Source of the DNA: an uncultured Bacilli bacterium
GTDB taxonomy: Bacteria > Bacillota_I > Bacilli_A > RF39 > UBA660
Reading direction: 5' to 3'
DNA length: 64,000 nucleotides
Assembly: GCA_934130105.1 (NCBI GenBank)
Contig: CAKOXL010000001.1
Location: 3,431-67,430 of the forward strand
Below are positions 2,204 through 31,681 of this stretch, in pieces (the stretch's first letter is position 1; each line of letters opens with the position of its first letter). The position numbers were made by a program, and so were the translations under genes. The notes beneath the pieces were generated by a model. The model was not told the origin of the DNA. It searched no databases and worked only from the letters and a program-made list of their open reading frames with translations.

Positions 2204-2223
2204 TATTATAGTAGGAGGTATTT

Positions 2224-2412: not shown

Positions 2413-2461
2413 AGTTAACATTGAAAGACCTTTTACATATAATTATGTAGGAGGTTTTTTT

Positions 2462-2701
2462 ATGTTTAATGATTCTTTTTTTAAAAAAGTAGAAAATAAA
2501 TCTGGTGTTGATAAAAAAACAATTATGTCTTTAGCTAACAAACTACAACATTCTAATATGAAAGATGAGACTGTGTTAAGAGACTTAGTTAAAGAAATAG
2601 GTGATTTAGCTGGCAAAGAAGTAAGCAAAGAAAAAGAAGATAAAATAGTTAATGCTATATTAAAGGATAATGTTCCAAAAGATATTGATAAACTTATTTA
2701 A
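2462..2701 (+). CDS. small sporulation-associated-like protein (possibly SpoVIF family)
   Basis: 79-aa ORF with RBS aggaggt; its composition and size resemble small Bacillus sporulation proteins. Weak call. Confidence 0.3.
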   Translation: MFNDSFFKKVENKSGVDKKTIMSLANKLQHSNMKDETVLRDLVKEIGDLAGKEVSKEKEDKIVNAILKDNVPKDIDKLI

Positions 2702-2757
2702 AATCACCCCTTTAGTATTGAATTATTTAAAAAATGTGATATAATAAGCAGTACTTA

Positions 2758-3231: not shown

Positions 3232-3321
3232 CACTATATTTATAAGATATTTCGTTATTATGGAATATCTTTTTTTTTGTTTCATATAGTTAAATGAAAT
3301 AGAAAGTGAGTGTTATTATAT

Positions 3322-4797: not shown

Positions 4798-4819
4798 GAA
4801 GAGAAATCTTCTTTTTTTC
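4798..4819 (+). terminator. rho-independent terminator after spoIVA
   Basis: gaaga-gaaa-tcttc hairpin followed by T7. Confidence 0.5.
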
Positions 4820-4853
4820 TTGTATTTATGATATAGTACTATTTGGTGATTGT

Positions 4854-5309
4854 ATGGATTTAAAGAAAGAAAAGTATATTATTTTAGAAATAATACCAAC
4901 ATCTATTAGAAAAGAAAATGGTGTTATTGTTCAGTTATCGGCCTTAAAACTTGATGGCCTTCGTTTAATTGATCGTTTTGATTATAGATTAAATGAAGAA
5001 AAAGTTCCACTTAAAGATTTTATTGATATGTGTAGTTATGATAAAGAATCTTTTAATTATGTTGATAGTACTGATATTATTCTTGATGAGTTTAAAAAAT
5101 GGATAGGAGATTATCCACTTTTAATAATTGATAACGAATATACTAAAAACTATTTAAAGGATATTGATAATAATAAAGAATCTATATTTAAGTATTTAAA
5201 TATCGAAAATGATGACTTAGCTATCGATAAAATTATATCAAAATATAACCTAGAACCAAGTAATTACATAGTTGACTTACTATACGAAGCAATTATTCAA
5301 GAAATTTAA
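4854..5309 (+). CDS. hypothetical protein
   Basis: 151-aa ORF. Confidence 0.4.
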   Translation: MDLKKEKYIILEIIPTSIRKENGVIVQLSALKLDGLRLIDRFDYRLNEEKVPLKDFIDMCSYDKESFNYVDSTDIILDEFKKWIGDYPLLIIDNEYTKNYLKDIDNNKESIFKYLNIENDDLAIDKIISKYNLEPSNYIVDLLYEAIIQEI

Positions 5310-5422
5310 CCATTTATTTTATATTTTTACTTAAACTAGTTGATTTTATTGATATTTCATGCTATTCTTTAAATGTAAGCATAGTGTGTGCTTAAATAGA
5401 AAATTTATGGAGGTTATTTAAC

Positions 5423-5695
5423 ATGAAAAAAGCAGAATTAGTAGAAGCAGTAGCAGAAAAAGCAGGTTTAACTAAAGCAGACGCTGAACGTGCAATTAAA
5501 GCTATTTGTGAAGAAATTCAAGGAGTATTAGTAAAAGGAGATAAGATTACTCTTCCTGGATTTGGTACTTTCTCAGTAAGTGAAAGATCAGCTCGTGAAG
5601 GACGTAACCCACAAACTGGTGCTGTAGTTAAAATTGCTGCTAGTAAATCAGCTAAATTTAAACAAAGTTCAACTTTAAAAGCAGCTCTTAACTAA
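5423..5695 (+). CDS. hup: DNA-binding protein HU
   Basis: 90 aa, MKKAELVEAVAEKAGLTKADAERAI...GFGTFSVSERSAREGRNPQTG, a canonical HU/IHF fold sequence. Confidence 0.92.
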   Translation: MKKAELVEAVAEKAGLTKADAERAIKAICEEIQGVLVKGDKITLPGFGTFSVSERSAREGRNPQTGAVVKIAASKSAKFKQSSTLKAALN

Positions 5696-5715
5696 TATAT
5701 AGATTAAATGATAGT

Positions 5716-5747
5716 AAAGAATGATTAACTTCATTCTTTTCTTTTTG
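5716..5747 (+). terminator. rho-independent terminator after hup
   Basis: aagaatga/tcattctt stem followed by a T-rich run. Confidence 0.55.
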
Positions 5748-5761
5748 AATTTGGAGGCAAT

Positions 5762-6148
5762 ATGAAAAAACTAGTTATTTTAATACTAATTATTTCTTTA
5801 ATATCAGGATGTCAGAGTAAAAACAATAATTTAAAAAATGATCAAATAAGAAAAATAGATCAGTCAACTGTTTATGCTAGTATAAATGATAGTAATATTT
5901 ATATAATCGATGTAAGGGAACCAGATGAATATAGCCAATCTCATATAGAAAATGCCTATAATGTACCATATACTTCAATTACTGATATTAGTAAACTAAA
6001 TATTAATTTAGATTCTAAGATAATAGTTTACTGTCAAAGTGGAAATCGTAGTAGAATGGCCGCTAATAGGTTAATTGAAATGGGATATACAAATGTTTAC
6101 GATATGGGTGGTATTATATACTGGAATTATGAACTTGTAACTGAATAG
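5762..6148 (+). CDS. rhodanese-domain lipoprotein (sulfurtransferase-like)
   Basis: Signal peptide with lipobox-like ISGCQS; rhodanese active-site loop CQSGNRS. Confidence 0.7.
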   Translation: MKKLVILILIISLISGCQSKNNNLKNDQIRKIDQSTVYASINDSNIYIIDVREPDEYSQSHIENAYNVPYTSITDISKLNINLDSKIIVYCQSGNRSRMAANRLIEMGYTNVYDMGGIIYWNYELVTE

Positions 6149-6175
6149 TTATGTTATAATAAAATAGGTGGTAAT

Positions 6176-7276
6176 ATGCTAAAAACAGCTTTAAAATTGA
6201 TACAAGAAATAGAGAATAATGGTTACAAAGCTTATATCGTAGGTGGTTTTGTTAGAGATAAAATACTTGGTATTAAATCAAATGATATTGATATTTGTAC
6301 TAATGCAAGGCCTAGTGATATTAGAAAAATATTTCCCAGCTCTTGTTTATCTAATGAGGATTATGGATCAGTTACTGTAATTATTAAAAATGTTAGGTTT
6401 GAAATTACTTCTTTTCGTAGAGAAATTACGTATTTAAATAATCGTAAACCAATTGAGTTTGAATATATTGATGATTTATTAGAGGATTTAAAAAGAAGAG
6501 ATTTTAAAATTAATACTCTTTGTATGGATAAAGATGGTAATATTATAGACTTATTAGGTGGTAATAATGATATAATTGCTCGTGAAATTAATACTGTTGG
6601 AGATAGTTATTTAAAGTTTTCTGAAGATTCATTACGTATCTTAAGAGCAGTAAGATTTGCAACTATTTTAGATTTTAGACTTAGTGATGATGTTAAACAA
6701 GCTATCATAAAAACTAAGAAATATTTAAAAAATTTATCATTTGAAAGAAAAAAAGAAGAATTGAACAAAATCTTTGCAAGCATTCACGTAAAATATGGCG
6801 TTAAATTATTATTAGCACTAGGCCTTGATAAAGAACTTGATCTTGATAATTTACGTAATATTAAGCATTTTGATGATCTAATGGGTGTATGGGCTCAACT
6901 TAATGTTTTAGATATTTACCCATTTTCTAAAAATGAGAAAGAGCTTATTAATGATATAAATAAAGTATTACCTCTTAATAATCTAGAGCCTCTAGTACTA
7001 TATAAATATGGTTTATATGTAAATAGTATAGCAGCTGATATTAAAGGTATTAATAGAAAATTAGTAACTAAAAAATATAATGAATTACCAATTAAGTGTC
7101 GTAGTGATATCTTAATTGACGGTAACAAAATAATGAGTTTACTAGGTACTAAGCCTGGCAAGTATATAAAAGATATAATTAATAATATAGAAAAAGAAAT
7201 AGTAAATGGTAATTTACCTAATGATGAAAATGATATAAAGAACTATATATTAAAATATTGGAGTACACATAACTAG
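6176..7276 (+). CDS. cca: CCA-adding tRNA nucleotidyltransferase
   Basis: YIVGGFVRDKILG...DIDI polymerase-beta-like nucleotidyltransferase head; 366 aa. Confidence 0.8.
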   Translation: MLKTALKLIQEIENNGYKAYIVGGFVRDKILGIKSNDIDICTNARPSDIRKIFPSSCLSNEDYGSVTVIIKNVRFEITSFRREITYLNNRKPIEFEYIDDLLEDLKRRDFKINTLCMDKDGNIIDLLGGNNDIIAREINTVGDSYLKFSEDSLRILRAVRFATILDFRLSDDVKQAIIKTKKYLKNLSFERKKEELNKIFASIHVKYGVKLLLALGLDKELDLDNLRNIKHFDDLMGVWAQLNVLDIYPFSKNEKELINDINKVLPLNNLEPLVLYKYGLYVNSIAADIKGINRKLVTKKYNELPIKCRSDILIDGNKIMSLLGTKPGKYIKDIINNIEKEIVNGNLPNDENDIKNYILKYWSTHN

Positions 7277-7329
7277 TGTACTTTTTAACATTTTTTGGTA
7301 TAATATATGATGTTTAGTGGGGTGATACT

Positions 7330-8010
7330 ATGAAAAGCAGCAAGTTGATAGAAATTTTAAAAAAAGGAAATTTTGTAGTACCGTTATATTTATTTCAATT
7401 AAGGGATAAATTTAATATTAAATTTAATGAATTTATTTTCTTAGTATACTTAACTAATTTAGGTGATAAAATTATCTTTAATCCTAACTCTTTAGCAAGT
7501 AATTTAAATTTAACTTTGGAAGAAGTATTATCATATATAGATACCCTAACTGAAAAGGGTTATATTACTATTGAGGTTATCAAAAATGATAAAAATGTAA
7601 TGGAAGAATATATTGTATTAGATTTATTCTATGAAAAATTAACTAATATCATGATTGATGATATAAATAAATCAAAAATTGAAGATGAAAAGAATAGTAA
7701 TATATTTGAAATTATAGAAAAAGAGTTTGCAAGACCATTAACATCCATCGAATATGAAATAATTAGTGCTTGGTTAGAGGATGGTACTAAAGAAGAATTA
7801 ATTTTAGAAGCTATAAAAGAAGCCGTTTTTAGTGGTGTATGTAATCTAAGGTATATTGATAAAATTTTGTATGAATGGGGCAAAAAGGGTATAAAAACAG
7901 CTAAAGATGTAGAAAAAAATCGTACTGAGTTTAAGGAAAAGCAAGAAAAGAAAGAAAAACTAGAGCTTTTTGATTACGACTGGTTTGATGATGACGATGA
8001 ATCAAATTAA
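7330..8010 (+). CDS. dnaD: DnaD-domain replication initiation / membrane attachment protein
   Basis: C-terminal DnaD-like domain (LRYIDKILYEWGKKGIKT); the dnaD-nth synteny seen in Bacilli. Confidence 0.6.
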   Translation: MKSSKLIEILKKGNFVVPLYLFQLRDKFNIKFNEFIFLVYLTNLGDKIIFNPNSLASNLNLTLEEVLSYIDTLTEKGYITIEVIKNDKNVMEEYIVLDLFYEKLTNIMIDDINKSKIEDEKNSNIFEIIEKEFARPLTSIEYEIISAWLEDGTKEELILEAIKEAVFSGVCNLRYIDKILYEWGKKGIKTAKDVEKNRTEFKEKQEKKEKLELFDYDWFDDDDESN

Positions 8011-13510: not shown

Positions 13511-16366
13511 ATGTTTAGACAAGATCAATCTATAAAAACAATCGTTTTTGATGATAATGTAGGATATTATTCTCAAGGAAAATTGGCTCAATGGGCTATG
13601 GATAGAAAAAATATTTATGGTGATGTTAAGGTTGTGGTTTGGACTGCTAATGGAAATAATTTTGAATTTGATACTTTAGGATGCAATTCTGAACAAGAAA
13701 TAATAGATAAAAATCAGGATGTATTTAATAAAATGGGACTACCTAATTTTATAGCAAACAGTGTAGGCAATAAGACATATATAACGATAGATGGTATGGA
13801 CAAGTCTTACACAATTGATTTTGAAAAATGCGATGACTTAGGAGATTTTGTATCATTAAATCAAAATGTTATAAATGAAATCCCAGAAAAGTATTTAGGC
13901 GGTATAATCAATTTTGCAAAGGAAAAAATTAATAATAAAAACGTTAAAGAACCAGAAACTACTTTAGAAAATAATAACTCTGAAGATACTATTTATTTAG
14001 AAAAAGAAGATGGCACCATAGAAGAAATTTTAGCAAAAATGATGGAAGAAAAATCAAAAAGTAATAAAGAAGTGGCATATAACCATGAAAATATGAATTT
14101 TTCAACTAAAGATTGTAGTAGTTTAGATGATATAATAACCAAATATCAAAAAGAGCTATTTGCAGATATCGAAAATGAAAGAGCAAAAAATTTCAATAAT
14201 TCAGAATGTCAATTATTAATAAGAAATTTTACAAATAAAGTTGGCAGTATTCCATTAACAGAAGAGGAAAAACAAATAGTACAACAAGAGTATAGTAATG
14301 TTTTAAATAAAAAAGTTGATTTTGAAAAACCGCAAGAAGTTAGAAATTGGTTAAATGAAGCTTCTAGATATATTAATGATATTAACTTTAATAGTTATGT
14401 CGATGTTGATGCACTTATAAATATTTTAAATAATAATGGCTATACTTCTACTAAAAAAGAAGTAAATGGTCTTGAATCATACCAAGCAAGTACTATATCA
14501 TATGATGTAGCTGACCTTGAAAAATATCATTTTTTTGCTGGTAATTATTTAGAAAACTATGTTAATAGTGTAAATAATGAATTAGAAAATAATAATCAAG
14601 TTGACCTTTACAGCCAAATTGAACTTTATAACCAAGTTGAAGAAACTGATTTATATAATGAGTTAGGAACTTTAAATACTAAAAAGAAAAGATTAATAAA
14701 TGAAATTAAATATTTAGAACAATATGCACTAGGAAGTTTTGATAGTAATCGTAATATAACACCAACATTTAACGAACGTATTAAAAAAATACAATCTCAA
14801 ATTAGTGCGTTGGAAGAGGAAAAAAGTAAGTATAATGGTGTTTTAATTGCTACCGATTTAAGTAACTCTAAAGTTATTCTAAACCATTTAGTAGAAAAAG
14901 AAAGTGGCAATTTAGTAGAAGCAACAAATGATGCTATACAATTATTTAAAGTAGCAGATGGAATACCATCTACTGAAAACATTATTAAGCTATTAGAAAA
15001 AATAGAACAAATTCCTGATACAAATAAAAAAATAAAAGAAGCATTACTAACTTCTACCATTTATTTAAATGAACGTTATTCATTAAACAAAGAACAAGAA
15101 GAAAAAGAACAAATATCAGAACGCATAAATAAATTTGATTTTAAAACCGATAAACAAAAGCTAGATGAATATGTATCTAAAATAAATTCTTTAAATTCTG
15201 AATACCAAAAAGTAGAACAAGAAAAGAAACAAGCAGAAGAAAAGGTTTCTGAGAAGATAAAAGATAAAAAGGAAAAATTATTTGAAGTTATAAGTAAAAT
15301 TGATAGCATTGAAGAAAAGATTGCTTTAAAAGAAAGTAAAGCTAACCAAAATAAAGGCAAAAATAATACTGAAAAATTAGGTCAAACTAATTTAGCGATT
15401 GAAGAAAATAAGCCAGTTAAAAATAATGAAAGAATTTTTACAGATGAAGAAAGAATTGATAAAGATCATAGCTATTTAAATGCAGATAATGCTAAAAATA
15501 TGAATCTTTTAAATGATTTTAATAAAGATAAAGGTGCCAATAACGCAGGTAATAAAAATACTGTAAATAACTCAAACAATGCAAATAATGCAAATAATGC
15601 TAATAATGTAAATAGTGATAACAATATAAATGGTATTAATATTCCAACACCAAAAGATGATAAATTCAAAAGACCACATCCAATTAAAGCTATTAAAAAG
15701 GCTGGAAGCAAACTAAAAGAAAAAATAAGTAACTTTAATTTTAAAGAAAAAATGAAAAAAGCACTAGAATGGTTCTATAAGCATAAAGTTGCAACATTTG
15801 TAGTAGGTGCCGTAACATTAGCAGCAGCTGTTGCAATAGGAAATAGTAAAACAGATTCAACTTTTAATAGTAATGTTAGTAGTAGGATTGAATCAGATAG
15901 TAAAGAAGATAACAATGAAATAAATATTAAACCAGCAGCTAGTTTAATTAACCAAGGATATGTTGATGAAATACTTAATAATATGACTCCTAATAATAAT
16001 GTAAATTCTAGTGATTCAAATTCTAATACTGTTAGTGATGATAAACAGTTTGAAGATGCTATAAGCAATTTAAATAATGATATTTTAGCTGGTACTGCAA
16101 AAGTATATACTCAAGAAAATAACGCTTTTGATGGAAGTAATTACGTTCAACACGATAATTTATATGCACCATCTTGGCAAAATGCTGAAGTAGGAGCTTT
16201 CTATGCTAATGAAAATGGTAATATAACTCAAATTAGTAGGGAAGAAGCTGAAGCAAGATACAATAATGGTGAAGATGTAGTAGCTAAAATGGAAAATGAT
16301 GGTGTAGGAATTGGTTTTATAAATCTTGATAAGGATAACCAAGAAAACATCGGAATGTCTAAGTAA
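13511..16366 (+). CDS. large hypothetical protein with coiled-coil and Asn-rich low-complexity regions and a single TM helix
   Basis: 951-aa ORF with RBS taggaggt; long E/K-rich heptad-like stretches, an NNANNANNANNVN repeat, and a hydrophobic helix VATFVVGAVTLAAAVAIG near residue 760. Confidence 0.5.
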   Translation: MFRQDQSIKTIVFDDNVGYYSQGKLAQWAMDRKNIYGDVKVVVWTANGNNFEFDTLGCNSEQEIIDKNQDVFNKMGLPNFIANSVGNKTYITIDGMDKSYTIDFEKCDDLGDFVSLNQNVINEIPEKYLGGIINFAKEKINNKNVKEPETTLENNNSEDTIYLEKEDGTIEEILAKMMEEKSKSNKEVAYNHENMNFSTKDCSSLDDIITKYQKELFADIENERAKNFNNSECQLLIRNFTNKVGSIPLTEEEKQIVQQEYSNVLNKKVDFEKPQEVRNWLNEASRYINDINFNSYVDVDALINILNNNGYTSTKKEVNGLESYQASTISYDVADLEKYHFFAGNYLENYVNSVNNELENNNQVDLYSQIELYNQVEETDLYNELGTLNTKKKRLINEIKYLEQYALGSFDSNRNITPTFNERIKKIQSQISALEEEKSKYNGVLIATDLSNSKVILNHLVEKESGNLVEATNDAIQLFKVADGIPSTENIIKLLEKIEQIPDTNKKIKEALLTSTIYLNERYSLNKEQEEKEQISERINKFDFKTDKQKLDEYVSKINSLNSEYQKVEQEKKQAEEKVSEKIKDKKEKLFEVISKIDSIEEKIALKESKANQNKGKNNTEKLGQTNLAIEENKPVKNNERIFTDEERIDKDHSYLNADNAKNMNLLNDFNKDKGANNAGNKNTVNNSNNANNANNANNVNSDNNINGINIPTPKDDKFKRPHPIKAIKKAGSKLKEKISNFNFKEKMKKALEWFYKHKVATFVVGAVTLAAAVAIGNSKTDSTFNSNVSSRIESDSKEDNNEINIKPAASLINQGYVDEILNNMTPNNNVNSSDSNSNTVSDDKQFEDAISNLNNDILAGTAKVYTQENNAFDGSNYVQHDNLYAPSWQNAEVGAFYANENGNITQISREEAEARYNNGEDVVAKMENDGVGIGFINLDKDNQENIGMSK

Positions 16367-19253: not shown

Positions 19254-20048
19254 TTAATTCTTAATCGCTTTTTTTTCTATAAAAATAATAATTTCATACA
19301 TAATGTAAGAAACAATTGCTAATATTACTACGCCAGTAATTACTAGGTTAATATTAAATACTTGTGAACCATACATAATAAGGTAACCAAGTCCTTCTTT
19401 AGAAACCAGTAACTCACCCATAATTACACCAATTAAACTCATACTAATATTAACTTTTAGACAATTTATTATCATTTTTTTATTGCAAGGAACAATTAAT
19501 TTACTAAAAATCTGTCTTCTCTTAGCATTAAATGTTTTCATTAAAGTTATATAGTAATGATCAGTTGAAATAAATCCTTGATAAATATTGATGATGGTAA
19601 CAAAAGTAGAAATTAAAAGTGCCATAAATATAATTGAATTTGTATCAGCACCAACCCAAATAATGATTAAAGGACCAAGTGCTACTTTTGGAAGTGAATT
19701 AAGAACCGTTAAGTAAGGATCTATTATTTTAGCAAGAGTTTTATTCCACCAAAGAATAGATGCAACTAAAAATCCTATAACGGATGCAAGCGTAAAACTA
19801 ACTAGTGTTTCATAAACAGTTACATATATATGTTTCCATAAATTATTTTGTTCGATTAATGATAAAACTGTTTTTAATACATTACTTGGTGAGCTAGTTA
19901 AAAATGTATTAATGATATTGAGTCTAGCAGCTATTTCCCAAATAGATAAAAAAATAATGATTATAGCGAATTGGCTTATTCTTATAAACCATTTCTTTTG
20001 TTTAATCTTTTTAAGATATAGTTTATGCTCCTTACTATAAGTTAACAT
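19254..20048 (-). CDS. ABC transporter permease (nitrate/sulfonate/bicarbonate NitT/TauT family)
   Basis: 264 aa, 6 TM, EAA-like loop; downstream of the ATPase on the minus strand. Confidence 0.8.
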   Translation of the reverse strand: MLTYSKEHKLYLKKIKQKKWFIRISQFAIIIIFLSIWEIAARLNIINTFLTSSPSNVLKTVLSLIEQNNLWKHIYVTVYETLVSFTLASVIGFLVASILWWNKTLAKIIDPYLTVLNSLPKVALGPLIIIWVGADTNSIIFMALLISTFVTIINIYQGFISTDHYYITLMKTFNAKRRQIFSKLIVPCNKKMIINCLKVNISMSLIGVIMGELLVSKEGLGYLIMYGSQVFNINLVITGVVILAIVSYIMYEIIIFIEKKAIKN

Positions 20049-20784
20049 CTAAATCCCTCCAAATCTCATCATAATATGTATTAAACTCAATACATTTTCT
20101 ATTATTTATAGGAGTAGATTTATTAGTTAACTTAATATCATAAATTTTTTTAACCATTGCTGGTCTTTTTGTTAATACAACGACCCTATCAGATAAAGAA
20201 ATAGCTTCTGCCAAATCATGAGTAACTAGAATAGCAGTTTTACCCTCATTTTTAATAATTTTATAAACATCATCAGATAGTGCTAAACGTGTCTGATAAT
20301 CAAGAGCTGAGAATGGTTCATCAAGTAATAGTATATCAGGTTCTATTGCTAGTGTTCTAATTAATGCAACCCTTTGCTTCATGCCACCCGATAAGGAATC
20401 AGGATATTTGTTGATAAATTCACCCAAACCATAAGTATTAAGCAATTTAATAACTCTATTTCTTGTTGTATTGTTTAAAGTATGATTTATTTCTAAACCA
20501 ATTAAACAATTTTCTAAAATAGTTTTCCAAGGAAACAAAGCATCTTTTTGAAGCATATAACCAAGTTTAACATTTTCTTTGTTAAAAGAAATAGTGCCAC
20601 CTGATTTCTTTTCTAAATTAGATAGGATAGAAAGTAAACTCGTTTTTCCACAACCAGATGGACCGACAATAGAAATAAGTTCCTTATCATAAATATCTAG
20701 ATTGATATCTCCAATTGCACATACTTCACCATCTATATCATGATAATTTTTTTTTAAGTTTTTAATACTTAAAATTGTTTCCAT
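20035..20784 (-). CDS. ABC transporter ATP-binding protein (SsuB/TauB-like)
   Basis: Walker A GPSGCGKTS, signature LSGGMKQR, Walker B LLLDEPFSALD. Confidence 0.85.
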   Translation of the reverse strand: METILSIKNLKKNYHDIDGEVCAIGDINLDIYDKELISIVGPSGCGKTSLLSILSNLEKKSGGTISFNKENVKLGYMLQKDALFPWKTILENCLIGLEINHTLNNTTRNRVIKLLNTYGLGEFINKYPDSLSGGMKQRVALIRTLAIEPDILLLDEPFSALDYQTRLALSDDVYKIIKNEGKTAILVTHDLAEAISLSDRVVVLTKRPAMVKKIYDIKLTNKSTPINNRKCIEFNTYYDEIWRDLDVNL

Positions 20785-20787
20785 TAT

Positions 20788-21498
20788 TTAGTCCTTGATA
20801 TATATTAGATCTTCATATTTTACAGTTGTATCAAGTTCATTAGCGGCTTTCATAATTTCTTGTAAGTGATAAAAAGAATCACTACTAAATTTAGTTGTAG
20901 TAGGCCAAGCTTCAATACCACGGTATCTTGCGATAACACCAGCTAAATCATTTAAAGATGTATCTGGGAAAAATGATAATATAGCATTAGCCACTTCTTC
21001 ATCACTATGATTATTAACATAATCAAGTCCTTTTTGAATAGCTCTTGTGAATTTCTCTATAATTTCAGGATTTTTTTCTATATAGCTACTTCTAGCACTA
21101 TAAGAAGTATAAGGAACAACACCACCTAATTCTCCAATAGATGCAACAACATAGCCTAATCCTTGCTTTTCTATTTGTAGAGCATTAGGTTCAAATAAAG
21201 TAACAAAGTCTCCTTGGCCACCAATAAAAGCTCCACTCATAGCAGCAAAAGCAACACTTGTATCAATATTTAAATCATTAACAGGATCTATTCCATTTTG
21301 TCTAAGGGCCCATTCAAATGTCATTTCAGGCATACCACCTTGACGTCCTCCAATTACACTTTTTCCTTTTAGATCATCTAATGTAAAATTATCAAACTTT
21401 TGTCTTGATACTAAAAATGAGCCATCTTTTTGAGTAAGTTGTGCAAAAGTTTTTAAATAATCTTTTTCGCCAGCATTATATACATAAGAGGCTGTCTG
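20788..21498 (-). pseudogene. C-terminal two-thirds of an NMT1/SsuA-type substrate-binding protein gene, separated from its 5' part by an inserted element
   Basis: The minus-strand reading frame stays open from 21498 down to 20788 (QTASYVYNAGEKDY...MPEMTFEWALRQNG...), which is the C-terminal half of an NMT1/THI5-like SBP. The matching N-terminal half lies 5.7 kb away at 27174..27473. Confidence 0.7.
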
Positions 21499-21852
21499 CT
21501 AGAGGATAATATATCTAATAAGAGTATATTTGAAAGTGATAATGAGAAAACGTTCTCTAATACCAAGTCATTTATTTAAAAAGTTATTATTAAAAATAGT
21601 AAGTGATATAATTAAAAACACAGTAAAGTTTTAAAACTTTTAAAAATTTATGATACAATATTACCAGAAAAAGATGTTTTATGTTAGATAAAATATTTGA
21701 CTTTAAACAATTAAAAAAGCATACTAGCATAATAGAATCTGTGCACTAGATGTAGAAATAAGAGTTCTTAATTATGAAGACACAATAATTTTGTATGAAA
21801 TAAAAAAATATTTTATGATGACAACTAGATAAATAGGAAAGGAATGTAAATA

Positions 21853-22536
21853 ATGCAAAAGCAAGAAAAATTTGGAGAAAATTTTGAAAAATTGATTGAA
21901 GATTTTTTTAACTATCTAAAAGAAGAAGAAATTAGTATATATAATGAATTTAGTTTTCAACATGAATTGGGAATATACTTAAGAAATATATATCACAAAA
22001 ATTATAAAATTGAATTTGAACGCAACGCAAATAAACATCTTCATATTAACTATGATAAGTTAACAGATTCTAATGAAGAGAGAATAAAAGAAGAAATGGA
22101 TATTTATATATATAATAAAAATGATATTTCAGAAAGATACGCAATTGAATTAAAATATCCACTAAATGGACAGGTTCCAGAGCAAATGTATCAGTTTGCC
22201 AAAGATATCAAATTTATGCAATTTTTAAAAAATAAAGGATTTAGTAAAACTTATTGTATAGTTCTAACAGATAATAAAAATTTTTATATGGGTCAACAAA
22301 AAGGAAGGGTAGCAGATATTTATAAATATTTCCGCAGTAGTATGGAATCATTAACTGGAAAGATTGAAAAACCAACTGGTAAATATCAAAATAATAGACC
22401 ATTTATTAATTTGGAAAAAGAATATCACATTATTTGGAATTCTTGTGAAGTTATACAAACAGAGTACAATATTAAAAACCAATCCTTAACTTCTAAGATA
22501 AATAAATGTAGATATTTCATAATTAAATGTGAATAA
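21853..22536 (+). CDS. hypothetical protein with a PD-(D/E)xK nuclease-like motif (element cargo)
   Basis: 227 aa; ...QHELGIY...MDIYIYNKNDISERYAIELKYP fits the E...D...ExK restriction-endonuclease-fold pattern. Prediction from motif only. Confidence 0.35.
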   Translation: MQKQEKFGENFEKLIEDFFNYLKEEEISIYNEFSFQHELGIYLRNIYHKNYKIEFERNANKHLHINYDKLTDSNEERIKEEMDIYIYNKNDISERYAIELKYPLNGQVPEQMYQFAKDIKFMQFLKNKGFSKTYCIVLTDNKNFYMGQQKGRVADIYKYFRSSMESLTGKIEKPTGKYQNNRPFINLEKEYHIIWNSCEVIQTEYNIKNQSLTSKINKCRYFIIKCE

Positions 22537-22601
22537 ATATAGTAAAAATGTTTTTGAGTAAAAAAATTAAGCTAATATTAAAAATATTAAAGGTATGGTG
22601 A

Positions 22602-23348
22602 TTGAAAGTGAGTTTTGATAGTGATTTAATTGTAAAAAAGATCGTGTTAGAACGAGAAAAAATTCCAAGTTTTGAAAAGTATCCATTTAATATTGAATTA
22701 GTAAAAAATTTTAATGAATTAAATTTTACTTCCCCAGTCACATTTTTTGTGGGTGAAAATGGAGTTGGTAAATCGACCTTTATAGAAGCAATCGCTATAG
22801 CATTAGGATTACCACCAGAGGGAGGCACTGAAAATTTTAAATATAACACAAACAACACTTCATCAAATCTTGCAGATTATTTGAAAGTATTAACCTTTAA
22901 TAAGGCAAAGACTAAATTCTTTTTAAGGGCAGAGAACTTTTATAATTTTTCTACTGAAGTTCAAAGACTAGTAGAAGAAGATGGATTTTACAGTCTATAT
23001 AATTCATATGGTGGAAATTTACATAAATGTTCACACGGAGAATCTTTTCTGCAATTAGTTAAGTATAAATTTACAGATCATGGATTATATATTTTAGATG
23101 AACCAGAGGCGGCTCTTTCTCCACAAAGACAGTTATCATTGCTTTACTTGATAGATCAATTGGCAAAAGATGGAAGCCAATTTATAATTGCTACTCATTC
23201 ACCTATTTTAATAAGTTATCGTGATGGAAAAATATTAGACTTAAATAATGACTTTAAAGAGACAAAATATGAAGATACTGAAATATATTCATTATATAAA
23301 ACTTGCTTAGAAGATTATGAAAATATACAACACAAAATGTTTGATTAA
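22602..23348 (+). CDS. ABC-type AAA ATPase (AAA_15/AAA_21-like, COG3910-like) (element cargo)
   Basis: Walker A GENGVGKST, signature-like CSHGESFLQL, Walker B LYILDEPEAALS, H-loop ATHSP; 248 aa. Confidence 0.7.
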   Translation: MKVSFDSDLIVKKIVLEREKIPSFEKYPFNIELVKNFNELNFTSPVTFFVGENGVGKSTFIEAIAIALGLPPEGGTENFKYNTNNTSSNLADYLKVLTFNKAKTKFFLRAENFYNFSTEVQRLVEEDGFYSLYNSYGGNLHKCSHGESFLQLVKYKFTDHGLYILDEPEAALSPQRQLSLLYLIDQLAKDGSQFIIATHSPILISYRDGKILDLNNDFKETKYEDTEIYSLYKTCLEDYENIQHKMFD

Positions 23349-23447
23349 AAATAAGTAGAATTAATTTTCTCTTTCTTTATACGGAAATAAAAACAATAGA
23401 CAAACTTAAAAAAATGTTTATAATATTTAGAAAAAGGAATTGATACT

Positions 23448-25127
23448 ATGGATATAGACTTAAAAAAAATTAAGAAAAAATATGGCGAAGATTTTGCTCA
23501 CTTGTGCCGTGATTTGTTTCCAACTTTGCTTGAAACGGAAGGACTATTGTATAGTTTGATAGAAAGTAATTTTTATCCTTCTAAATCTTTATATTTCGAT
23601 ATCGTTGATAACAACTTGGAATCAGATTTTCAAAGTTTTATCAATAATTTGGTCATAACCGAAGAAAAAGTAAAAATTGATACAGGTAAAACGCCACAAG
23701 AATTACTAGATGAAGCTGGTTATACCTTATATGAATGTAAAACAGAGCAAGATATTCAAAGTTTTAAAAAATATTTTGCGAAAGGTGAAGAACTTTGTAC
23801 TTTTAATGGTGGAAGACTAAATAGCTGTTACGTATTTTTTGCTGTTAAGAAAAATGTAGATGATATTAAAAGAAAAGATTTTGTTAATCCTCAAAGACAA
23901 GATGAGTATGGAACTTCCGTTATTAGCATTCAATTTACTAAAAATGATCAATCTACTGTATCAATAAAAAACAGATATAATCATAAGGTAACTAACCCTG
24001 ATGCAACGTTTAGTAATAATTTAGATAATATTGTTTATGGTTTAACTATGAGTTTTAAAAATACTTATAACCTTAATTTTGATGATACCAATAACCAATG
24101 GTTTGAAATACCAAAATATGTACGTGCTAGTGATGGTAGAATTTATAAATATAATTATGAAATAGATAATATTTATTATTGTCCTGATAATATAATTATT
24201 GATAATTTTGAAGTAAAAAAATATGAAAAAGAAAGATACATAGTATTGGATTATTTTATCTTAGATATTAAATTAAAGAGAATAGAACCGTATAATAAAT
24301 CTGAATCAGATAGTTTTGTTGATGGACTTGATAACATTGATAAAGTTCAGATTGAAAAGGAAGAAGATAAAAAAAATATATATTTAGATATAGAAGGAAA
24401 TACTATAGTTATAGTGTTAGATAAAGAAAATAGAATAATAGGCTATCGAAATAATGCTATAACATGCATTGGTAATTATTTTTTATATTATAATGAGGTA
24501 GTAAAGAATTTAAGTTTATGGAATGTAAAAAGGGTTGGTCGATGTTTTTTATTTTCAAATGAATGGGGACTAGAATCAATTGATCTGTCATCAGTAGAAG
24601 AAGTTTCTGATAATTTCTTATATAGTAATCTCTCTCTTTCTAAAATAGTAATGCCATATTTAGAAAAAGTAGGAAATTGTTTTATGGCAAGTAATAAAAT
24701 TCTTAATGAGATACGTTTTTCTGAGTTAAAAGAAACTGGCACCAATTTCCTTCACGATAATTTGTCATTAACATGTTTAAACCTTCCAAGTTTAATAAGA
24801 GTAGGAAATGGTTTTATAAGCGACAATCCATTAATTAACCAAGTATCTATGCCTAGTTTAGAAAATGTGGGAGATGAATTTCTATCACATAATGATCGTT
24901 TAAAAGTCTTAATCTTACCCAAATTAAAAAAAGCTGGTAATCAATTTCTTAGATACAATACAAGTTTGTTAAGTTTGAAATTACCTGAATTAGAGTCAAT
25001 TGACGAACCATATTTAGAATTTAACAAATATGTGGTTCCTAAAAATGTATTGAATAGTAGTGCGTTTTCATCTGATTTTAAAAGTAAACAAAAGAAATTA
25101 GGCACCATAAGTACAAAACAGTATTAA
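23448..25127 (+). CDS. cytoplasmic BspA-type leucine-rich-repeat protein with an unknown N-terminal domain (element cargo)
   Basis: 559 aa with no signal peptide. The C-terminal ~200 aa consist of ~22-aa LRR_5-type repeats (GNCFMASNKILNEIRF / GTNFLHDNLSLTCLNLPSL / GNGFISDNPLINQVSMPSL / GDEFLSHNDRLKVLILPKL / GNQFLRYNTSLLSLKLPEL). Confidence 0.6.
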   Translation: MDIDLKKIKKKYGEDFAHLCRDLFPTLLETEGLLYSLIESNFYPSKSLYFDIVDNNLESDFQSFINNLVITEEKVKIDTGKTPQELLDEAGYTLYECKTEQDIQSFKKYFAKGEELCTFNGGRLNSCYVFFAVKKNVDDIKRKDFVNPQRQDEYGTSVISIQFTKNDQSTVSIKNRYNHKVTNPDATFSNNLDNIVYGLTMSFKNTYNLNFDDTNNQWFEIPKYVRASDGRIYKYNYEIDNIYYCPDNIIIDNFEVKKYEKERYIVLDYFILDIKLKRIEPYNKSESDSFVDGLDNIDKVQIEKEEDKKNIYLDIEGNTIVIVLDKENRIIGYRNNAITCIGNYFLYYNEVVKNLSLWNVKRVGRCFLFSNEWGLESIDLSSVEEVSDNFLYSNLSLSKIVMPYLEKVGNCFMASNKILNEIRFSELKETGTNFLHDNLSLTCLNLPSLIRVGNGFISDNPLINQVSMPSLENVGDEFLSHNDRLKVLILPKLKKAGNQFLRYNTSLLSLKLPELESIDEPYLEFNKYVVPKNVLNSSAFSSDFKSKQKKLGTISTKQY

Positions 25128-25225
25128 GAATTACACTAAGTTGTAGTTCTTTTTTTTGATAAAAATAATAAACTCAATCAAACATAAATATATGAAAAAT
25201 TCATAAAATTTTATTAGGTGATGAG

Positions 25226-25408
25226 ATGAAAAAAATCGTTTATTCACAAGATTTAATCTTATCAGAAACACATTTAAATTTAATCCTAGAAAAATTTCTA
25301 TCAAAAAAGTTATACGAAAATAACTTCATTAGTTTTGATACTTTTGAAAAAATAAAAGAAGAAATTGATAATGAAATATCAGAAATAAGATTAGAGTTTA
25401 GAAAATAA
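25226..25408 (+). CDS. small hypothetical protein upstream of the recombinase (possible accessory/directionality factor)
   Basis: 60-aa ORF; position only. Confidence 0.25.
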   Translation: MKKIVYSQDLILSETHLNLILEKFLSKKLYENNFISFDTFEKIKEEIDNEISEIRLEFRK

Positions 25409-25453
25409 ACCATAGTTCTAATAAAAATAAAATTACAGGAAGGGAGATTTATA

Positions 25454-27151
25454 TTGACTTTTGATAAATACAAAAAATATAATTTATTAGAAGAAATAAG
25501 AAAAGAAATTCTATCAGGTAAATCAATTTATGACTTAAAATTAAGAGCTACATTTTATGCCAGAGTATCTAGTGATAGTGAAGAACAAGCAACATCAGTT
25601 GTAAATCAAGTAGATTATTTTACTAATCTAATGAAATCAGTACCTAACTGGACATTTATAACAGGGTATATTGATGAAGGTATTAGTGGTAAAAGTGTAA
25701 ATAAAAGAGATGCTTTTTTAAAGATGATAGAAGATGCCAAAAATGATAAATTTGATTTAATACTAACAAAAAGTGTACCTAGATTTGCTAGAAATACTTT
25801 AGATAGTATCAAATACACCCAAGAATTGTTAAAATATAGTGTCGGTGTCTATTTTTTAAACGATAATATTAATACCTTTTTACCTGATTCAGAATTTCGT
25901 TTAACTTTGATGGCAAGCATTGCACAAGATGATTTGAGAAAACTATCAGAAAATGTAAAATTTGGATTAAAACAGTCAATTAAAAGAGGCATAGTTTTGG
26001 GAAGCAATAATATTTATGGTTATATAAAAAATAATGGTAGTTTGGAAATAGTAGAAAAAGAATCTATTGTTGTTAAAAAAATGTTTACTTTATATGATAG
26101 TTACTTAAGTTTGAAAAAGACTTCTATTGCTTTAGAAAAATTAGGCTATTTTAATCGTAAAGGTAAGCCCTTTGATACAACCACAATTAGAAGAATTTTA
26201 ATGAATCCTAAATATAAAGGCTACTATTGTGGTAATAAAACAACTGTCCTAGATTATAAGTCAGGTATTACTAAAAAGGTACCAAAAGATAAATGGTTAA
26301 TTTATAAAGATAATGAAAAAATCCCCCCTATTGTAGAAGAGGGATTATGGAATAGAGTAAATAGTGAACTAGAAAAGAAACAAATAGGATATCAAAATAA
26401 ACAAAGATTAGTTGTAAGAAGTAATTATGCTTATAGTGGAAAATTGATCTGTAAAGAACACAATATAGCTTATACAAGATCAGGTATTAAAAAGGGCAGA
26501 GTCAATGATTACCGTTACTGGTCTTGTAGATTATATAAAAGGGGAATTAAATATTGTAATAGTCCCTTATTAAAAGAAAGTGAACTAGATATCTTATTTA
26601 AAAATATTATTGCTAAATTTCTAAAAAACAAAGATAAGATAAAAAGAGAATTACTTGATAGAGTAAAACTTCATAATATTGATATCAATCTTACACAAAA
26701 AATAGCTAGTTTAAATAAAAAAATAACGGAATTAGAAGCAAAAAAGGAAAAACTATTAGAATTAGTTACCAATAACTATATAGCTAATCAGGAATTCAGT
26801 AAAAAGAATGAAAGTATAAATAGTGAAATAAATGATATAAAAGTGGAATTAAAAAATATGGAATCAAAAGAACTTTATAAAGATAATAGGAAAGAAGAAT
26901 TAGAAAATATAAAGAAAGAAATAGAAAATCAGTTAAGTGTGAATACTAATTTTACTAGTTTTATGGATTTATTAATAGATAAGGTTTATATATCTAAAAT
27001 AAGTAATAATCGCAACCTAGTAAAATTAGATATTTTATTGAAGACAGGTATGACCAAGTCCCTAAATTACGACAATAAACAACCGATGCAAAATCAATTA
27101 ATAGAATTAAAAAATGAGGGAGTAAGTTTTTTTATGAAAGATATTATTTAA
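25454..27151 (+). CDS. large serine recombinase (resolvase/invertase-type catalytic domain plus recombinase and zinc-ribbon/coiled-coil C-terminal domains)
   Basis: YARVSSDSEEQATSVVNQ (catalytic Ser), resolvase core DLILTKSVPRFARN, C-terminal CxxC cluster (YRYWSCRLYKRGIKYC) and coiled coil. TTG start with RBS ggaagggag. Confidence 0.85.
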   Translation: MTFDKYKKYNLLEEIRKEILSGKSIYDLKLRATFYARVSSDSEEQATSVVNQVDYFTNLMKSVPNWTFITGYIDEGISGKSVNKRDAFLKMIEDAKNDKFDLILTKSVPRFARNTLDSIKYTQELLKYSVGVYFLNDNINTFLPDSEFRLTLMASIAQDDLRKLSENVKFGLKQSIKRGIVLGSNNIYGYIKNNGSLEIVEKESIVVKKMFTLYDSYLSLKKTSIALEKLGYFNRKGKPFDTTTIRRILMNPKYKGYYCGNKTTVLDYKSGITKKVPKDKWLIYKDNEKIPPIVEEGLWNRVNSELEKKQIGYQNKQRLVVRSNYAYSGKLICKEHNIAYTRSGIKKGRVNDYRYWSCRLYKRGIKYCNSPLLKESELDILFKNIIAKFLKNKDKIKRELLDRVKLHNIDINLTQKIASLNKKITELEAKKEKLLELVTNNYIANQEFSKKNESINSEINDIKVELKNMESKELYKDNRKEELENIKKEIENQLSVNTNFTSFMDLLIDKVYISKISNNRNLVKLDILLKTGMTKSLNYDNKQPMQNQLIELKNEGVSFFMKDII

Positions 27152-27173
27152 TATTCCCTTAAACGACCACTAC

Positions 27174-27473
27174 CTAAATACAAGCTTCACTTCCGGAAAA
27201 ACCAATTTGAACATCACCTGATAAAACAGCAGCTGTAACCTTATCAGCACCAGGCGTTAAAATAAGTTCAACATCAAGTCCTTCTTCTTCAAAGAATCCT
27301 TGACTAATGGCAGCATATTGTGGTGCGTAGAAAACAGTATGTGCAACTTCAGCAACTTTAATTTTTTCTAGATTATCCTTCTTATTATCTCCTTTATTTA
27401 GATCAAGAATAAATAAAAGAAAAATCATACCGATAATCAAAATACAAATAATTGAATAAATTATCTTTTTCAT
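27174..27473 (-). pseudogene. N-terminal fragment (signal peptide plus first ~95 aa) of the NMT1/SsuA-type SBP gene split by the element
   Basis: MKKIIYSIICILIIG...KIKVAEVAHTVFYAPQYAAISQGFFEEEGLDVELILTPGADKVTAAVLSGDVQIGFSGSEA, then runs into element sequence (CI*). Confidence 0.7.
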
Positions 27474-27582
27474 ATATCCTCCTTCACTAGTGTATTATAT
27501 GAAAAAATAAAATAAGTGTTATTAAAAAAGTGGTTAGCATTTCTTAGTTATTTGATATAATAATGTCAAATGAAATAGTTAT

Positions 27583-28047
27583 TTGAGGAGTAAACTAAAA
27601 ATGAAAAAATATATAAAAATTATTTTACTAGCAGGTATCATTTTAGGCTTAATATTTTGCAGTTTGATAAAAAGTAATTACCGCACTATATCAGATATTA
27701 AAATTACTGAAAACAATGTATCATTATCTATCAAAGAAAATACACTTACTAATACTGGGGCAACTCTAATCTTAAAAAATAATAGTAACACAGATATTAA
27801 GTATGGTAATTCCTATGAAATAGAAATAAAACATAATAAAAAATGGTACAAACTAGATGGAAAAATGTATTTTACTTTACCGTTATTTTTTTTAGAACCA
27901 AATAAAACGGTAGAATTAGAAGAAAATTGGCAAGATGGGTATAAAAAGCTAAAAAAGGGAACTTATAGAATTATAAAAGAAATTAAAATAGAAAAAGAAA
28001 ATAATACTTTTGATAGTTTCTATGTAGCGGCTGAATTTACGATTTAA
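27583..28047 (+). CDS. hypothetical secreted/membrane-anchored protein
   Basis: N-terminal hydrophobic signal/anchor; 154 aa. Confidence 0.4.
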   Translation: MRSKLKMKKYIKIILLAGIILGLIFCSLIKSNYRTISDIKITENNVSLSIKENTLTNTGATLILKNNSNTDIKYGNSYEIEIKHNKKWYKLDGKMYFTLPLFFLEPNKTVELEENWQDGYKKLKKGTYRIIKEIKIEKENNTFDSFYVAAEFTI

Positions 28048-30102: not shown

Positions 30103-30876
30103 ATGAAAGAAAAACTATTAGTAAAAATAATTAAATATTTAATAGAAGAAGAAAATTATAATATCAAAATACCAAATTCTTATCATGAATTAAAAAATTT
30201 ATATAAGACACTTGTGAATATAAGACTACCAAAGCAAGTAAGTGAAGAAATTTTAAAGTTAGAAGATGCATATTTAAAATTAGAATTAAATGATAAAGAA
30301 GTAACTGATGCCAATGATTTAAAAGAAATAGATAAAAATATAATTTTGTGGCGTGGTGATATTACGACTTTAAAATGTGATGTGATTGTGAATGCAGGAA
30401 ATCACGATGGACTGGGTTGTTTTAATCCTAATCATAAATGTATTGATAACATAATCCACACGAATGCCGGTATGAGATTAAGACTTGAATGTAATGATAT
30501 TTTAAAAGGTAACAAAATAAAAAATGGCGAATTTATAGTATGTAGTGCTTATAATTTACCATCTAAAAAAGTAATCACAACAGTAGGACCTCAAGTTTTA
30601 GGAAGTATTACGAAAGAAAATGAAATAGACTTATCAAACTGTTATAAAAATACTTTAGAGTATGCTATTAAAAATAACTATAAACAAATAGCATTTCCTA
30701 GTATCTCAACAGGATTATTTTCTTACCCAATAGGAAAAGCTAAATTTATTGCTTATAATTCTGTAAAAGAAGTATTAAGTAAATATAATACCAATATAAA
30801 AGTGATTTTTAATGTCTATAGTGAGGAAGATTTACATGAATACAAAGAATTATTTGAAGATAAAAAAATTAATTGA
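30103..30876 (+). CDS. macro-domain protein (ADP-ribose binding/hydrolase) with an N-terminal extension
   Basis: ILWRGDITTLKCDVIVNAGN...GPQVLG...AFPSISTGLFSYP macro-domain motifs. Confidence 0.7.
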   Translation: MKEKLLVKIIKYLIEEENYNIKIPNSYHELKNLYKTLVNIRLPKQVSEEILKLEDAYLKLELNDKEVTDANDLKEIDKNIILWRGDITTLKCDVIVNAGNHDGLGCFNPNHKCIDNIIHTNAGMRLRLECNDILKGNKIKNGEFIVCSAYNLPSKKVITTVGPQVLGSITKENEIDLSNCYKNTLEYAIKNNYKQIAFPSISTGLFSYPIGKAKFIAYNSVKEVLSKYNTNIKVIFNVYSEEDLHEYKELFEDKKIN

Positions 30877-31681
30877 TAATAGTGATGCCATTCTAATTGG
30901 TGCTGGAGCTGGACTATCTTCATCAGCTGGAATAGACTATTCAGAAGAAAGCTTTAAAAAGAACTTTAAAGAATTAGTAGATGCTTACGGTATGACAGAT
31001 ATGTACTCATCTAGTTTTTATAAGTTTAAAACAGAAGAAGAAAGGTGGAGTTATTGGGCAAAACACATTAATTATTCTTTCATATCTAGAAAACCATTAA
31101 AAGCTTACCTTGACTTATTCAAAATAGTGGAAACCAAAAATTATTTTGTCATTACGACAAATGTAGATGGACAGTTTTTAAAATCAGGGTTTGCTAAGGA
31201 AAAAGTATTTGAAGTCCAAGGAAGTTATAGTAAAATACAGTGCTCTATTCCATGTCATAACAAATTATATGATGATACAAAGTTAGTAAAACAAATGTTA
31301 TTATCAAAAGATAACTTAAAAGTAGACACTAATTTAGTTCCATATTGTCCAATATGTCATGAAAAAATGGAAATTAATATCAGGAAAGATGATTCCTTTG
31401 TAGAAGATAGTAACTGGCATCAACTAAATAATGCCTATGAAAACTTTATAAATAGTAATATTGGTAAGAAATTAGTATTAATAGAATTAGGAGTAGGCTT
31501 TAATACACCAGGTATCATAAGATTTCCCTTTGAAAGACTAGCTTACGAATATGAAAATATTACTTTAATAAGAGTAAATGATAGATATACCGATGTAAAC
31601 TATGGACTTGAAGATAATATAAATGTTATTACTATGAAAGAAGACTGTGCTACTTTTATTCAAAATATTTTAAAGTATTGA
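30836..31681 (+). CDS. macrodomain-linked sirtuin (SirTM-class Sir2-family protein)
   Basis: Rossmann GAGAGLSSSAGIDY, TTNVDGQ, Zn ribbon CSIPCH...CPICH. Overlaps and is co-directional with the macro-domain gene. Gln occupies the position of the canonical catalytic His (EVQGS). Confidence 0.65.
   Translation: MNTKNYLKIKKLIDNSDAILIGAGAGLSSSAGIDYSEESFKKNFKELVDAYGMTDMYSSSFYKFKTEEERWSYWAKHINYSFISRKPLKAYLDLFKIVETKNYFVITTNVDGQFLKSGFAKEKVFEVQGSYSKIQCSIPCHNKLYDDTKLVKQMLLSKDNLKVDTNLVPYCPICHEKMEINIRKDDSFVEDSNWHQLNNAYENFINSNIGKKLVLIELGVGFNTPGIIRFPFERLAYEYENITLIRVNDRYTDVNYGLEDNINVITMKEDCATFIQNILKY

Follow-up and report, generated by a model that had tools for sequence, protein, structure and literature searches.

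Whether genes that travel side by side on a small mobile element also work together is the question raised by a locus of an uncultured Bacilli bacterium (GenBank assembly GCA_934130105.1, contig CAKOXL010000001.1), of which we analysed a stretch of 64,000 nucleotides, in the following called the window. Its positions 21853-25127 carry three co-directional genes, here named P1 (227 amino acids, aa), P2 (248 aa, with a TTG start) and P3 (559 aa), which a preliminary description had read as a candidate defence or abortive-infection cassette composed of a nuclease-like protein, an ATPase and a sensor with leucine-rich repeats (LRRs). Our data show that window 21488-27177 is an integrative element with a large serine recombinase and a TAA core. 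Its region 21853-25127 is, in the reading that we regard as probable, an exchangeable cargo slot, in which P1, P2 and P3 are independent modules linked by chance, i.e. unrelated accessory genes, part of which are defence-like, would have gathered in the slot of a small recombinase-driven island. All three open reading frames (ORFs) given in the preliminary description were confirmed, on the plus strand, and since they are long for DNA of approximately 26% G+C and have hundreds to thousands of homologues each, they are not chance ORFs.

The element and its variable slot

A single NMT1/THI5-type substrate-binding-protein gene, split in two, flanks the block on the minus strand; its N-terminal piece ends near 27177 and its C-terminal piece starts near 21486. 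Joining the halves gives one continuous match to NMT1 (positions 5-215 of 216; 96.8 bits, against approximately 36 bits for each half), the joined protein in this match having been built at a provisional GC core a few bases off the true TAA junction. In a related species (contig L143, reached via a homologue of P2), the same gene is intact and encodes 330 aa, and another contig of that species (L142), which is 99.5% identical to L143 across 6.27 kb of shared right flank, has it interrupted at the same place. Compared with this empty site, homology of the window ends at 21486 on the left and starts at 27171 on the right, and homology between L142 and L143 breaks at exactly the same bases. TAA stands at both junctions (table 1); the predicted attP junction reads ...AAACGACCACTACCTAAGAGGCTGTCTGC..., the predicted repaired attB junction ...GCATTATATACATAAATACAAGCTTCAC... 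and the repaired protein from the empty site ...GSEACIYVYNAG.... A GC core with the joined protein GSEA-SYVYN was rejected, because the empty site gives GSEACIYVYN and a TAA core. The empty site itself reads TAG where the junctions of occupied sites read TAA, which is a synonymous change in an Ile codon. The insertion is discrete, extends over 5,690 bp (approximately 21488-27177), has its counterpart in an empty site and shows the same short core at its two junctions. The ends and the recombinase bear out the earlier view of P1-P3 as cargo in the interior of a small mobile element, which can now be placed inside a split NMT1 gene.

Both halves of the interrupted binding-protein gene are still open. 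Compared between the window and a second copy of the element (L001), on which pair all substitution rates and percentages of divergence between copies given below are based, they show ratios of non-synonymous to synonymous substitution rates (dN/dS) of 0.10 (20788-21486) and 0.066 (27177-27473), at a dS of 0.20-0.40 that is similar to that of the element genes. The split gene could still be in use, e.g. by being restored in a switch-like manner when the element excises; alternatively, the purifying signal could reflect independent recent insertions at the same site, and as one pairwise comparison these selection figures cannot separate the two.

After the cargo follow a 60-aa ORF and the 565-aa recombinase, the stop codon of which is 23 bp short of the right junction. 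The recombinase matches Resolvase, Recombinase and Zn_ribbon_recom in Pfam (E 9.5e-26, 6.7e-17 and 2.1e-5) and the integrase family PHROG 95 (1.5e-100). An SCC-type cassette (CcrA/B/C) or an XisF-type element was rejected, as the recombinase stays below the NCBIfam equivalog cut-offs (CcrB, 118.8 bits vs 900; CcrC, 104.8 vs 900; XisF, 87.7 vs 375). The 60-aa ORF, which has no match in PADLOC, NCBIfam, PHROGs or Pfam, is conserved together with the recombinase (every copy of the element, and also the sister element described below, has it at 80-97% identity) and may be a candidate directionality or regulatory factor. These two genes are the constant backbone of the element and the remainder is a variable slot.

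A sister element at the same site (L142, L144) resembles that of the window in its recombinase (87% identity) and its 60-aa ORF (80%) but differs in cargo, which consists of a DUF6904 protein, a 252-aa and a 207-aa protein, and a Fic protein of 266 aa that matches the PADLOC candidate PDC-S04 (3e-34) and SoFic (2e-17). P1 and P3 are absent from it, and a P2 homologue lies outside the element. The insertion site in the related species is thereby polymorphic, being intact in L143 and occupied by this Fic/DUF6904 element in L142 and L144. In three other copies (L001, L002, L103) P1-P2-P3 are preceded by a 329-aa gene, here called X, and in a fourth (L013) a Fic-gene tail stands in front of X-P1-P2-P3. 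This tail, a 70-aa ORF upstream of X (L013 131-343), matches the C-terminal end of the sister element's Fic protein at 97% identity, so that in L013 either both cargo sets are combined or a remnant of one is kept. The window lacks approximately 1.08 kb including gene X between 21617 and 21702 (blastn), a region present in the four other copies (in L001 as 6773-7855); X itself has no Pfam or PADLOC match. In L103 (3034-4030 and 5001-5743) gene X and P2 carry frameshifts, which are either true decay or sequencing error.

From the matches of the sister-element Fic protein to PDC-S04 and SoFic, and from the defence genes that are often neighbours of P1 relatives (see below), it does seem that defence-type single genes gather in the cargo slot of this element family. 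The likeness to a defence island that had been noted for the locus thus stands for a slot that gathers such single genes, but not for one nuclease/ATPase/sensor system.

Serine-recombinase elements include phages with large serine recombinases as integrases, Tn4451/Tn4453-type elements with TnpX, and the gene-interrupting skin and SPbeta elements. With such elements and prophages the window element shares the single recombinase at one end, the insertion into a gene at a short core, the polymorphic site and the variable cargo. It differs from them in being only 5.7 kb long and in having no phage structural, replication or Mob genes, and also in its target, an ABC-transporter binding-protein gene.

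The three proteins and their relatives

P1 contains the motif MDIYIY...AIELKY in which a nuclease had been suspected. In an alignment of 46 sequences with 43-90% identity to P1, the residues E32, E38, E56, K79, E81, D83, E99, K101, N105, E110 and D118 are invariant. The AlphaFold model (predicted local distance difference test score, pLDDT, 89.7; predicted template modelling score, pTM, 0.88) has a helix at 32-47, strands at 51-58, 81-88 and 95-101, a helix at 108-127 and a strand at 132-139, i.e. an alpha-beta-beta-beta-alpha-beta core that places E38 on the helix, D83 on strand 2 and E99-x-K101 on strand 3, and it adds a beta-sheet domain at 167-226. The PDB structures found by Foldseek (PfoI, BstEII, HincII, Card1, CinB and a Cas4-family protein) are all weak matches, as are the top BFVD matches, which are mostly PD-(D/E)XK nucleases (best probability 0.98; template modelling score 0.52 on the target). 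P1 has no match in Pfam, NCBIfam, PADLOC or PHROGs, searches of PDB sequences with the single sequence and with a profile found nothing, and its relatives, at least 549, are all unnamed. The nuclease-like motif noted earlier is borne out by the alignment and by the topology of the modelled core; structural searches returned weak matches only. On the invariant E38, D83, E99 and K101 and the modelled topology we accept a nuclease-like PD-(D/E)xK fold for P1, which would most likely be a Mg2+-dependent PD-(D/E)xK endonuclease acting alone; its C-terminal beta domain could read a feature of the substrate.

A scan with one genome per species found P1 relatives in 244 genomes, with hosts that include Bacillota, Verrucomicrobia, Bacteroidales, Pasteurellaceae, Moraxella, Treponema, Desulfovibrionaceae, Chloroflexota and Methanosphaera. 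Relatives also occur in 12 IMG/VR contigs; the INPHARED phage genomes contain none. Neighbourhoods were compared at 80 loci from different species, with 6 kb on each side and with neighbours clustered and given as raw counts, and not one of the 80 has a P2 or P3 relative within this distance. Large serine recombinases are present in 23 of them, often as a tandem pair directly before P1, and amidase - SHOCT - recombinase - recombinase - DUF1413 - P1 is a frequent order. In 14 of 81 loci the gene immediately upstream of P1 encodes the 77-aa DUF1413 protein, with which P1 may form a unit. GmrSD occurs in eight loci, in seven of them directly downstream of P1, and a DUF4268/NucS-like protein, likewise a downstream neighbour, also in eight; further neighbours are type I restriction-modification together with AbiGi, AIPR with a SLFN-type helicase, and PLD with HATPase_c_3. 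A recurrent prophage-end module was seen in L048, L057, L058, L060, L088 and others, at approximately 800-6500, and consists of an amidase with SPOR, SHOCT, a serine recombinase, a small recombinase-like ORF, a second serine recombinase, DUF1413 and the P1 relative, the latter often followed by two GmrSD-type genes.

This pattern is that of a mobile single-gene module. The sporadic occurrence across phyla, the adjacent prophage recombinases and the type IV restriction, type I restriction and Abi neighbours point to a single-gene function of restriction-like or exclusion type, and a single-gene defence nuclease is a plausible reading of P1. In its motif and core, in the lack of an adjacent methyltransferase, in its defence-island and prophage-end contexts and in having GmrSD as a frequent neighbour, P1 resembles stand-alone PD-(D/E)xK restriction nucleases (type IV, Mrr-like), but it differs from the named PD-(D/E)xK families in having no sequence relationship to them in Pfam, NCBIfam, PADLOC, PHROGs or the PDB. 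A type II restriction enzyme was rejected, as no methyltransferase is among the recurrent neighbours.

In P2, all motifs quoted in the preliminary description (GENGVGKST, CSHGES, LDEPEAALS, ATHSP) were found, and they stand in the order Walker A (GENGVGKST), signature-like (SHGES), Walker B with the catalytic glutamate (ILDEPE) and H-loop (ATHSP). Pfam matches are to AAA_21 (9.2e-16; 59.2 bits, cut-off 27) and AAA_15 (53.4 bits, cut-off 32.1), and also to SMC_N, AAA_23 and ABC_tran; in PADLOC, MAD3 (MADS3), AriA of PARIS, PtuA of Septu, GajA of Gabija and NsnB of Menshen are matched at 1e-14 to 1e-17. P2 is thus, as had been proposed, an ABC-fold ATPase resembling the nucleoside triphosphatase (NTPase) heads of defence systems. 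Since the PADLOC alignments cover only both ends of profiles 300-630 positions long and the NCBIfam scores are far below the cut-offs (PtuA, 39.3 bits vs 500; MAD3, 31.2 vs 420), P2 is a bare nucleotide-binding domain. It was rejected as the ATPase component of Septu, PARIS, Gabija, MADS or Menshen, there being no full-length match and no inserted domain.

The P2 family is very large and unusually conserved, with 74-79% identity across more than 100 clusters. Relatives with 42-79% identity were found at 31 metagenome loci, in two further contig sets and on three plasmids, with no common neighbour; on the plasmids they are annotated as 'AAA family ATPase' and stand among unrelated genes, and the IMG/VR viral contigs contain none. 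P1 or P3 stands beside P2 only in copies of the window element. Furthermore, a homologue 88% identical to P2 (P0242) is chromosomal, located just beyond the binding-protein gene, and is kept where the site is empty (L143) as well as where the sister element is present (L142, L144). P2 would accordingly be described as a stand-alone ABC-type nucleotide-binding domain, presumably ATP-dimerising and with no fixed partner, which elsewhere is a gene of chromosomes or plasmids. One relative (L010 3356-5741; 77% identical) stands immediately behind a type VI retron reverse transcriptase (PADLOC RT_VI, 1.4e-49) and is also near another large serine recombinase.

P3 consists of two parts. Its AlphaFold model (pLDDT 85.5) is helical at 1-70, alpha/beta at 83-210 and beta-rich at 224-334, followed by eight 22-residue LRRs at approximately 345-520, a period with which the spacing of the DNA repeats by multiples of 66 nucleotides agrees. 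The full-length protein stays below the Pfam LRR_5 threshold, whereas its C-terminal 218 aa alone pass it (1e-7; 32.3 bits vs a cut-off of 27.7), and 24 of 40 relatives match LRR_5 as well. All PDB fold matches by Foldseek at E ≤ 0.01 are BspA/TpLRR-type proteins, among them 4gt6, 4fd0, 4fdw, 4cp6 and 6mlx at E 8e-5 to 1e-3; sequence searches of the PDB, with the single sequence or a profile, found nothing. A BspA-type LRR array at the C-terminus, as first described, is thereby confirmed. The N-terminal 341 aa have no match in Pfam, NCBIfam, PADLOC or PHROGs, and find 1195 cluster representatives (clusters at 50% identity), 679 of them at E ≤ 1e-30, and no relative in the IMG/VR viral contigs or the INPHARED phage genomes. 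They contain invariant Cys, Arg, Lys, Asn and Asp residues and a nearly invariant His. In the best 150 of the 1195 representatives, proteins of 359-857 aa, the match starts in nearly all cases within the first approximately 30 residues (mostly 1-8).

Two uncultured Bacilli carry tandem arrays of P3 paralogues, at least 12 in L014 1212-21896 (GCA_947589435.1) and at least five in L015 1-9045 (GCA_036342255.1), all co-directional and 42-55% identical to P3, and in L146 a single relative stands among housekeeping genes; neither P1 nor P2 was seen near P3 relatives in arrays or in single copy. Between the two element copies compared, P1, P2 and the recombinase are 90-92% identical but P3 only 59.5% (tblastn; 68% over aligned columns), with 62-85% in blocks of the N-terminal domain up to residue 280 and 22-62% in LRR blocks. 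With 0.65-0.72, P3 has about double the dS of its neighbours (0.31-0.42), and its dN/dS is 0.25 in the N-terminal domain and 0.46 in the LRR part, against 0.10-0.15 in the neighbours. This divergence together with the raised dS indicates that the P3 allele was exchanged or has a separate history. P3 would then be one allele of a very large family with a conserved N-terminal domain, a variable BspA-type LRR part and no export signals, presumably a binding protein whose LRR part is exchanged or diversified. An NLR-like or STAND sensor formed by P2 and P3 was rejected, as P3 has no NTPase domain and P2 is a separate ABC-type gene with a NACHT match at E 0.095 only.

By repeat type, 22-residue period, multiple copies and variable repeat number, P3 is akin to the BspA/TpLRR proteins (Tannerella BspA, PcpA, those of 'Ca. 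Mycoplasma girerdii' and Trichomonas), and its LRR part folds like 4gt6, 4fd0, 4cp6 and 6mlx. One may therefore ask whether P3 is a surface or secreted protein for adhesion or host interaction with an unrecognised export route, which would turn the cargo into a colonisation factor plus unrelated genes. Five of its fold matches (4gt6, 4fd0, 4fdw, PcpA, TpLRR) are described or known as cell-surface proteins; the tandem arrays and hypervariable LRRs of the P3 family recall antigenically variable surface families, and the expanded BspA-like families of host-associated Mollicutes have been read in this way (PMC4206474). P3 differs, however, from the BspA/TpLRR proteins in having neither signal peptide nor anchor and in its family always having the 340-aa N-terminal domain. 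No signal peptide, transmembrane segment or LPXTG motif was seen in the window protein, and a simple and crude hydropathy scan of 40 family members revealed no transmembrane or signal-peptide-like segment (maximum 19-residue hydropathy 1.33; no N-terminal hydrophobic core), in agreement with the earlier remark that P3 has no signal peptide. A domain that begins within the first approximately 30 residues leaves no room for a leader, and 23 of 26 BspA-like proteins of 'Ca. M. girerdii' have a C-terminal transmembrane anchor (PMC4206474), which P3 does not. The family-wide absence of a leader argues against classical export; a BspA-like surface protein with an export signal or anchor was rejected on hydropathy and on the position of the N-terminal domain, and a surface role by some other route seems to us unlikely, though it is the rival explanation that fares best.

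One system or independent passengers

Outside the element, P1, P2 and P3 each occur without the other two: none of the 80 P1 loci has P2 or P3, the P2 loci have neither partner, and the P3 arrays lack both. As the trio is not co-conserved across genomes, the single three-gene nuclease/ATPase/sensor system envisaged at the outset is not supported. A literature search on COG3910 and on LRR-containing defence systems likewise brought up nothing that matches the P1-P2-P3 gene set.

Several observations weigh against reading the three genes as independent modules. They are linked in all five copies that have them (window, L001, L002, L013, L103), the gaps between them are short (65 bp between P1 and P2, 99 bp between P2 and P3), and the dN/dS of P1 and P2 (0.10-0.15) indicates purifying selection. 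The P2 neighbourhoods are a modest sample, with approximately 20 loci long enough to judge; the counts of defence genes next to P1 are not set against a background rate, and P1 is also found among housekeeping genes. Moreover, Foldseek gave no match for P1 at E ≤ 1e-3.

According to a second rival, P1 as effector, P2 as motor or switch and P3 as LRR sensor, perhaps together with X, form a lineage-specific defence or abortive-infection system that was recently assembled on the element. In its favour are the co-directional genes, the tight spacing, a block kept in four other element copies and a variable LRR part, which would be expected of a sensor surface; the ends of P2 match the ATPase heads of MADS3, AriA, PtuA, GajA and NsnB, and the sister element carries a defence-candidate Fic protein. 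With PARIS, Septu, Gabija and the OLD family the locus has in common a P2 with an AAA_21-AAA_15 head of the AriA/PtuA/GajA type and an adjoining nuclease-like gene. Unlike in PARIS (AriA/AriB), Septu (PtuA/PtuB), Gabija (GajA/GajB) or OLD, however, P2 has no inserted or Toprim domain, P1 is of PD-(D/E)xK and not of Toprim or HNH type, and P1 and P2 are not co-conserved; a two-gene system of the Septu/PARIS/Gabija type was rejected, as their adjacency is seen at none of the 80 P1 loci and nowhere outside element copies. Against three partners speak also, besides the missing co-occurrence and the low NCBIfam scores, that P2 is unusually conserved and usually alone among unrelated neighbours, that its 88%-identical homologue is chromosomal even where there is no element, and that the block itself is not constant, gene X being absent from the window copy and both X and P2 being frameshifted in L103. 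A consensus-like promoter just upstream of P3 points in the same direction but is weak evidence. We therefore consider a recently assembled system improbable.

That P1 and/or P2 serve the element itself, i.e. its excision, replication, partition or stabilisation (addiction), is very improbable: although recombinases lie near P1 in 23 of the 80 loci, often as a tandem pair directly before it, and circularisation of the window element would place P1 after the recombinase across the junction, the other 57 P1 loci have no recombinase nearby, those beside P1 elsewhere are only 25-35% identical to that of the window (full-length matches), the sister element does without P1 or P2 at the same site, and P2 is present at the empty site.

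Coordinates and meaning of the locus

The features are collected in table 1. Neither an RNA element in 20500-28000 (Rfam) nor a tRNA gene anywhere in the window was found, and a scan for promoters and terminators in this AT-rich DNA was uninformative (39 sites vs 45 expected).

Table 1. Features of the element and of the interrupted operon (positions in the window).
Feature	Position	Strand	Basis
ABC transporter permease, operon of interrupted gene	19254-20048		
ABC transporter ATPase, operon of interrupted gene	20035-20784		
NMT1/THI5-type substrate-binding-protein gene, C-terminal part (~232 codons)	20788-21486	-	translation, Pfam NMT1, L143 homology end at 21486
Left junction attL, TAA common to right junction; crossover dinucleotide within TAA	21485-21487		L143 empty-site and L142 occupied-site comparison
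Element left arm, non-coding	21488-21852	+	blastn vs L001, L002, L013, L103; ORF list
P1, PD-(D/E)xK-like (E38, D83, E99-x-K101) with C-terminal beta-sheet domain, unnamed family	21853-22536	+	
P2, minimal soluble ABC-type ATPase without inserted or accessory domain	22602-23348	+	
P3, whole gene	23448-25127	+	
P3 N-terminal domain, ~340 aa, conserved, without family match	23448-24470	+	
P3 C-terminal BspA-type LRR array (8 x 22 aa) and basic tail, fast-diverging	24471-25127	+	
60-aa ORF, directly upstream of recombinase	25226-25408	+	
Large serine recombinase, 565 aa (Resolvase, Recombinase, Zn ribbon)	25454-27151	+	Pfam, PHROG 95
Right junction attR, TAA	27175-27177		L143/L142 comparisons
Substrate-binding-protein gene, N-terminal part (99 codons, lipoprotein-like leader)	27177-27473	-	

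Elsewhere in the window, the genes of a Macro-domain protein (30103-30876, plus strand; 3.7e-27) and of a SIR2-family protein (30812-31681, plus strand; 3.5e-7) share 65 bp at the start of the latter. Such Macro-domain/SIR2 pairs are known and have nothing to do with the P1-P3 cargo. A 951-aa protein (13511-16366, plus strand) has long low-complexity stretches rich in Asn, Lys and Glu, one hydrophobic segment and no Pfam match.

Going beyond independent modules in an exchangeable slot, one may speculate, with no great expectation of being right, that P1 founds a new, widely scattered family of single-gene nucleases with a restriction-like or exclusion function, mostly at prophage ends, and that the P3 family, with its arrays in uncultured gut Bacilli, is not one of adhesins but a cytoplasmic repertoire for intracellular recognition, with sensor and effector in one chain and without an NTPase.

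For further work on this locus, that a three-gene defence unit is not upheld spares the cloning of a wrong unit. P1 represents an unnamed PD-(D/E)xK family with a distribution over defence islands and prophage ends, and the N-terminal domain of P3 matches no described family, despite the very large size of its own. With its clean ends and a site that is empty in one contig and occupied in another, the element is a tractable model for the shuffling of accessory and defence genes by small islands.

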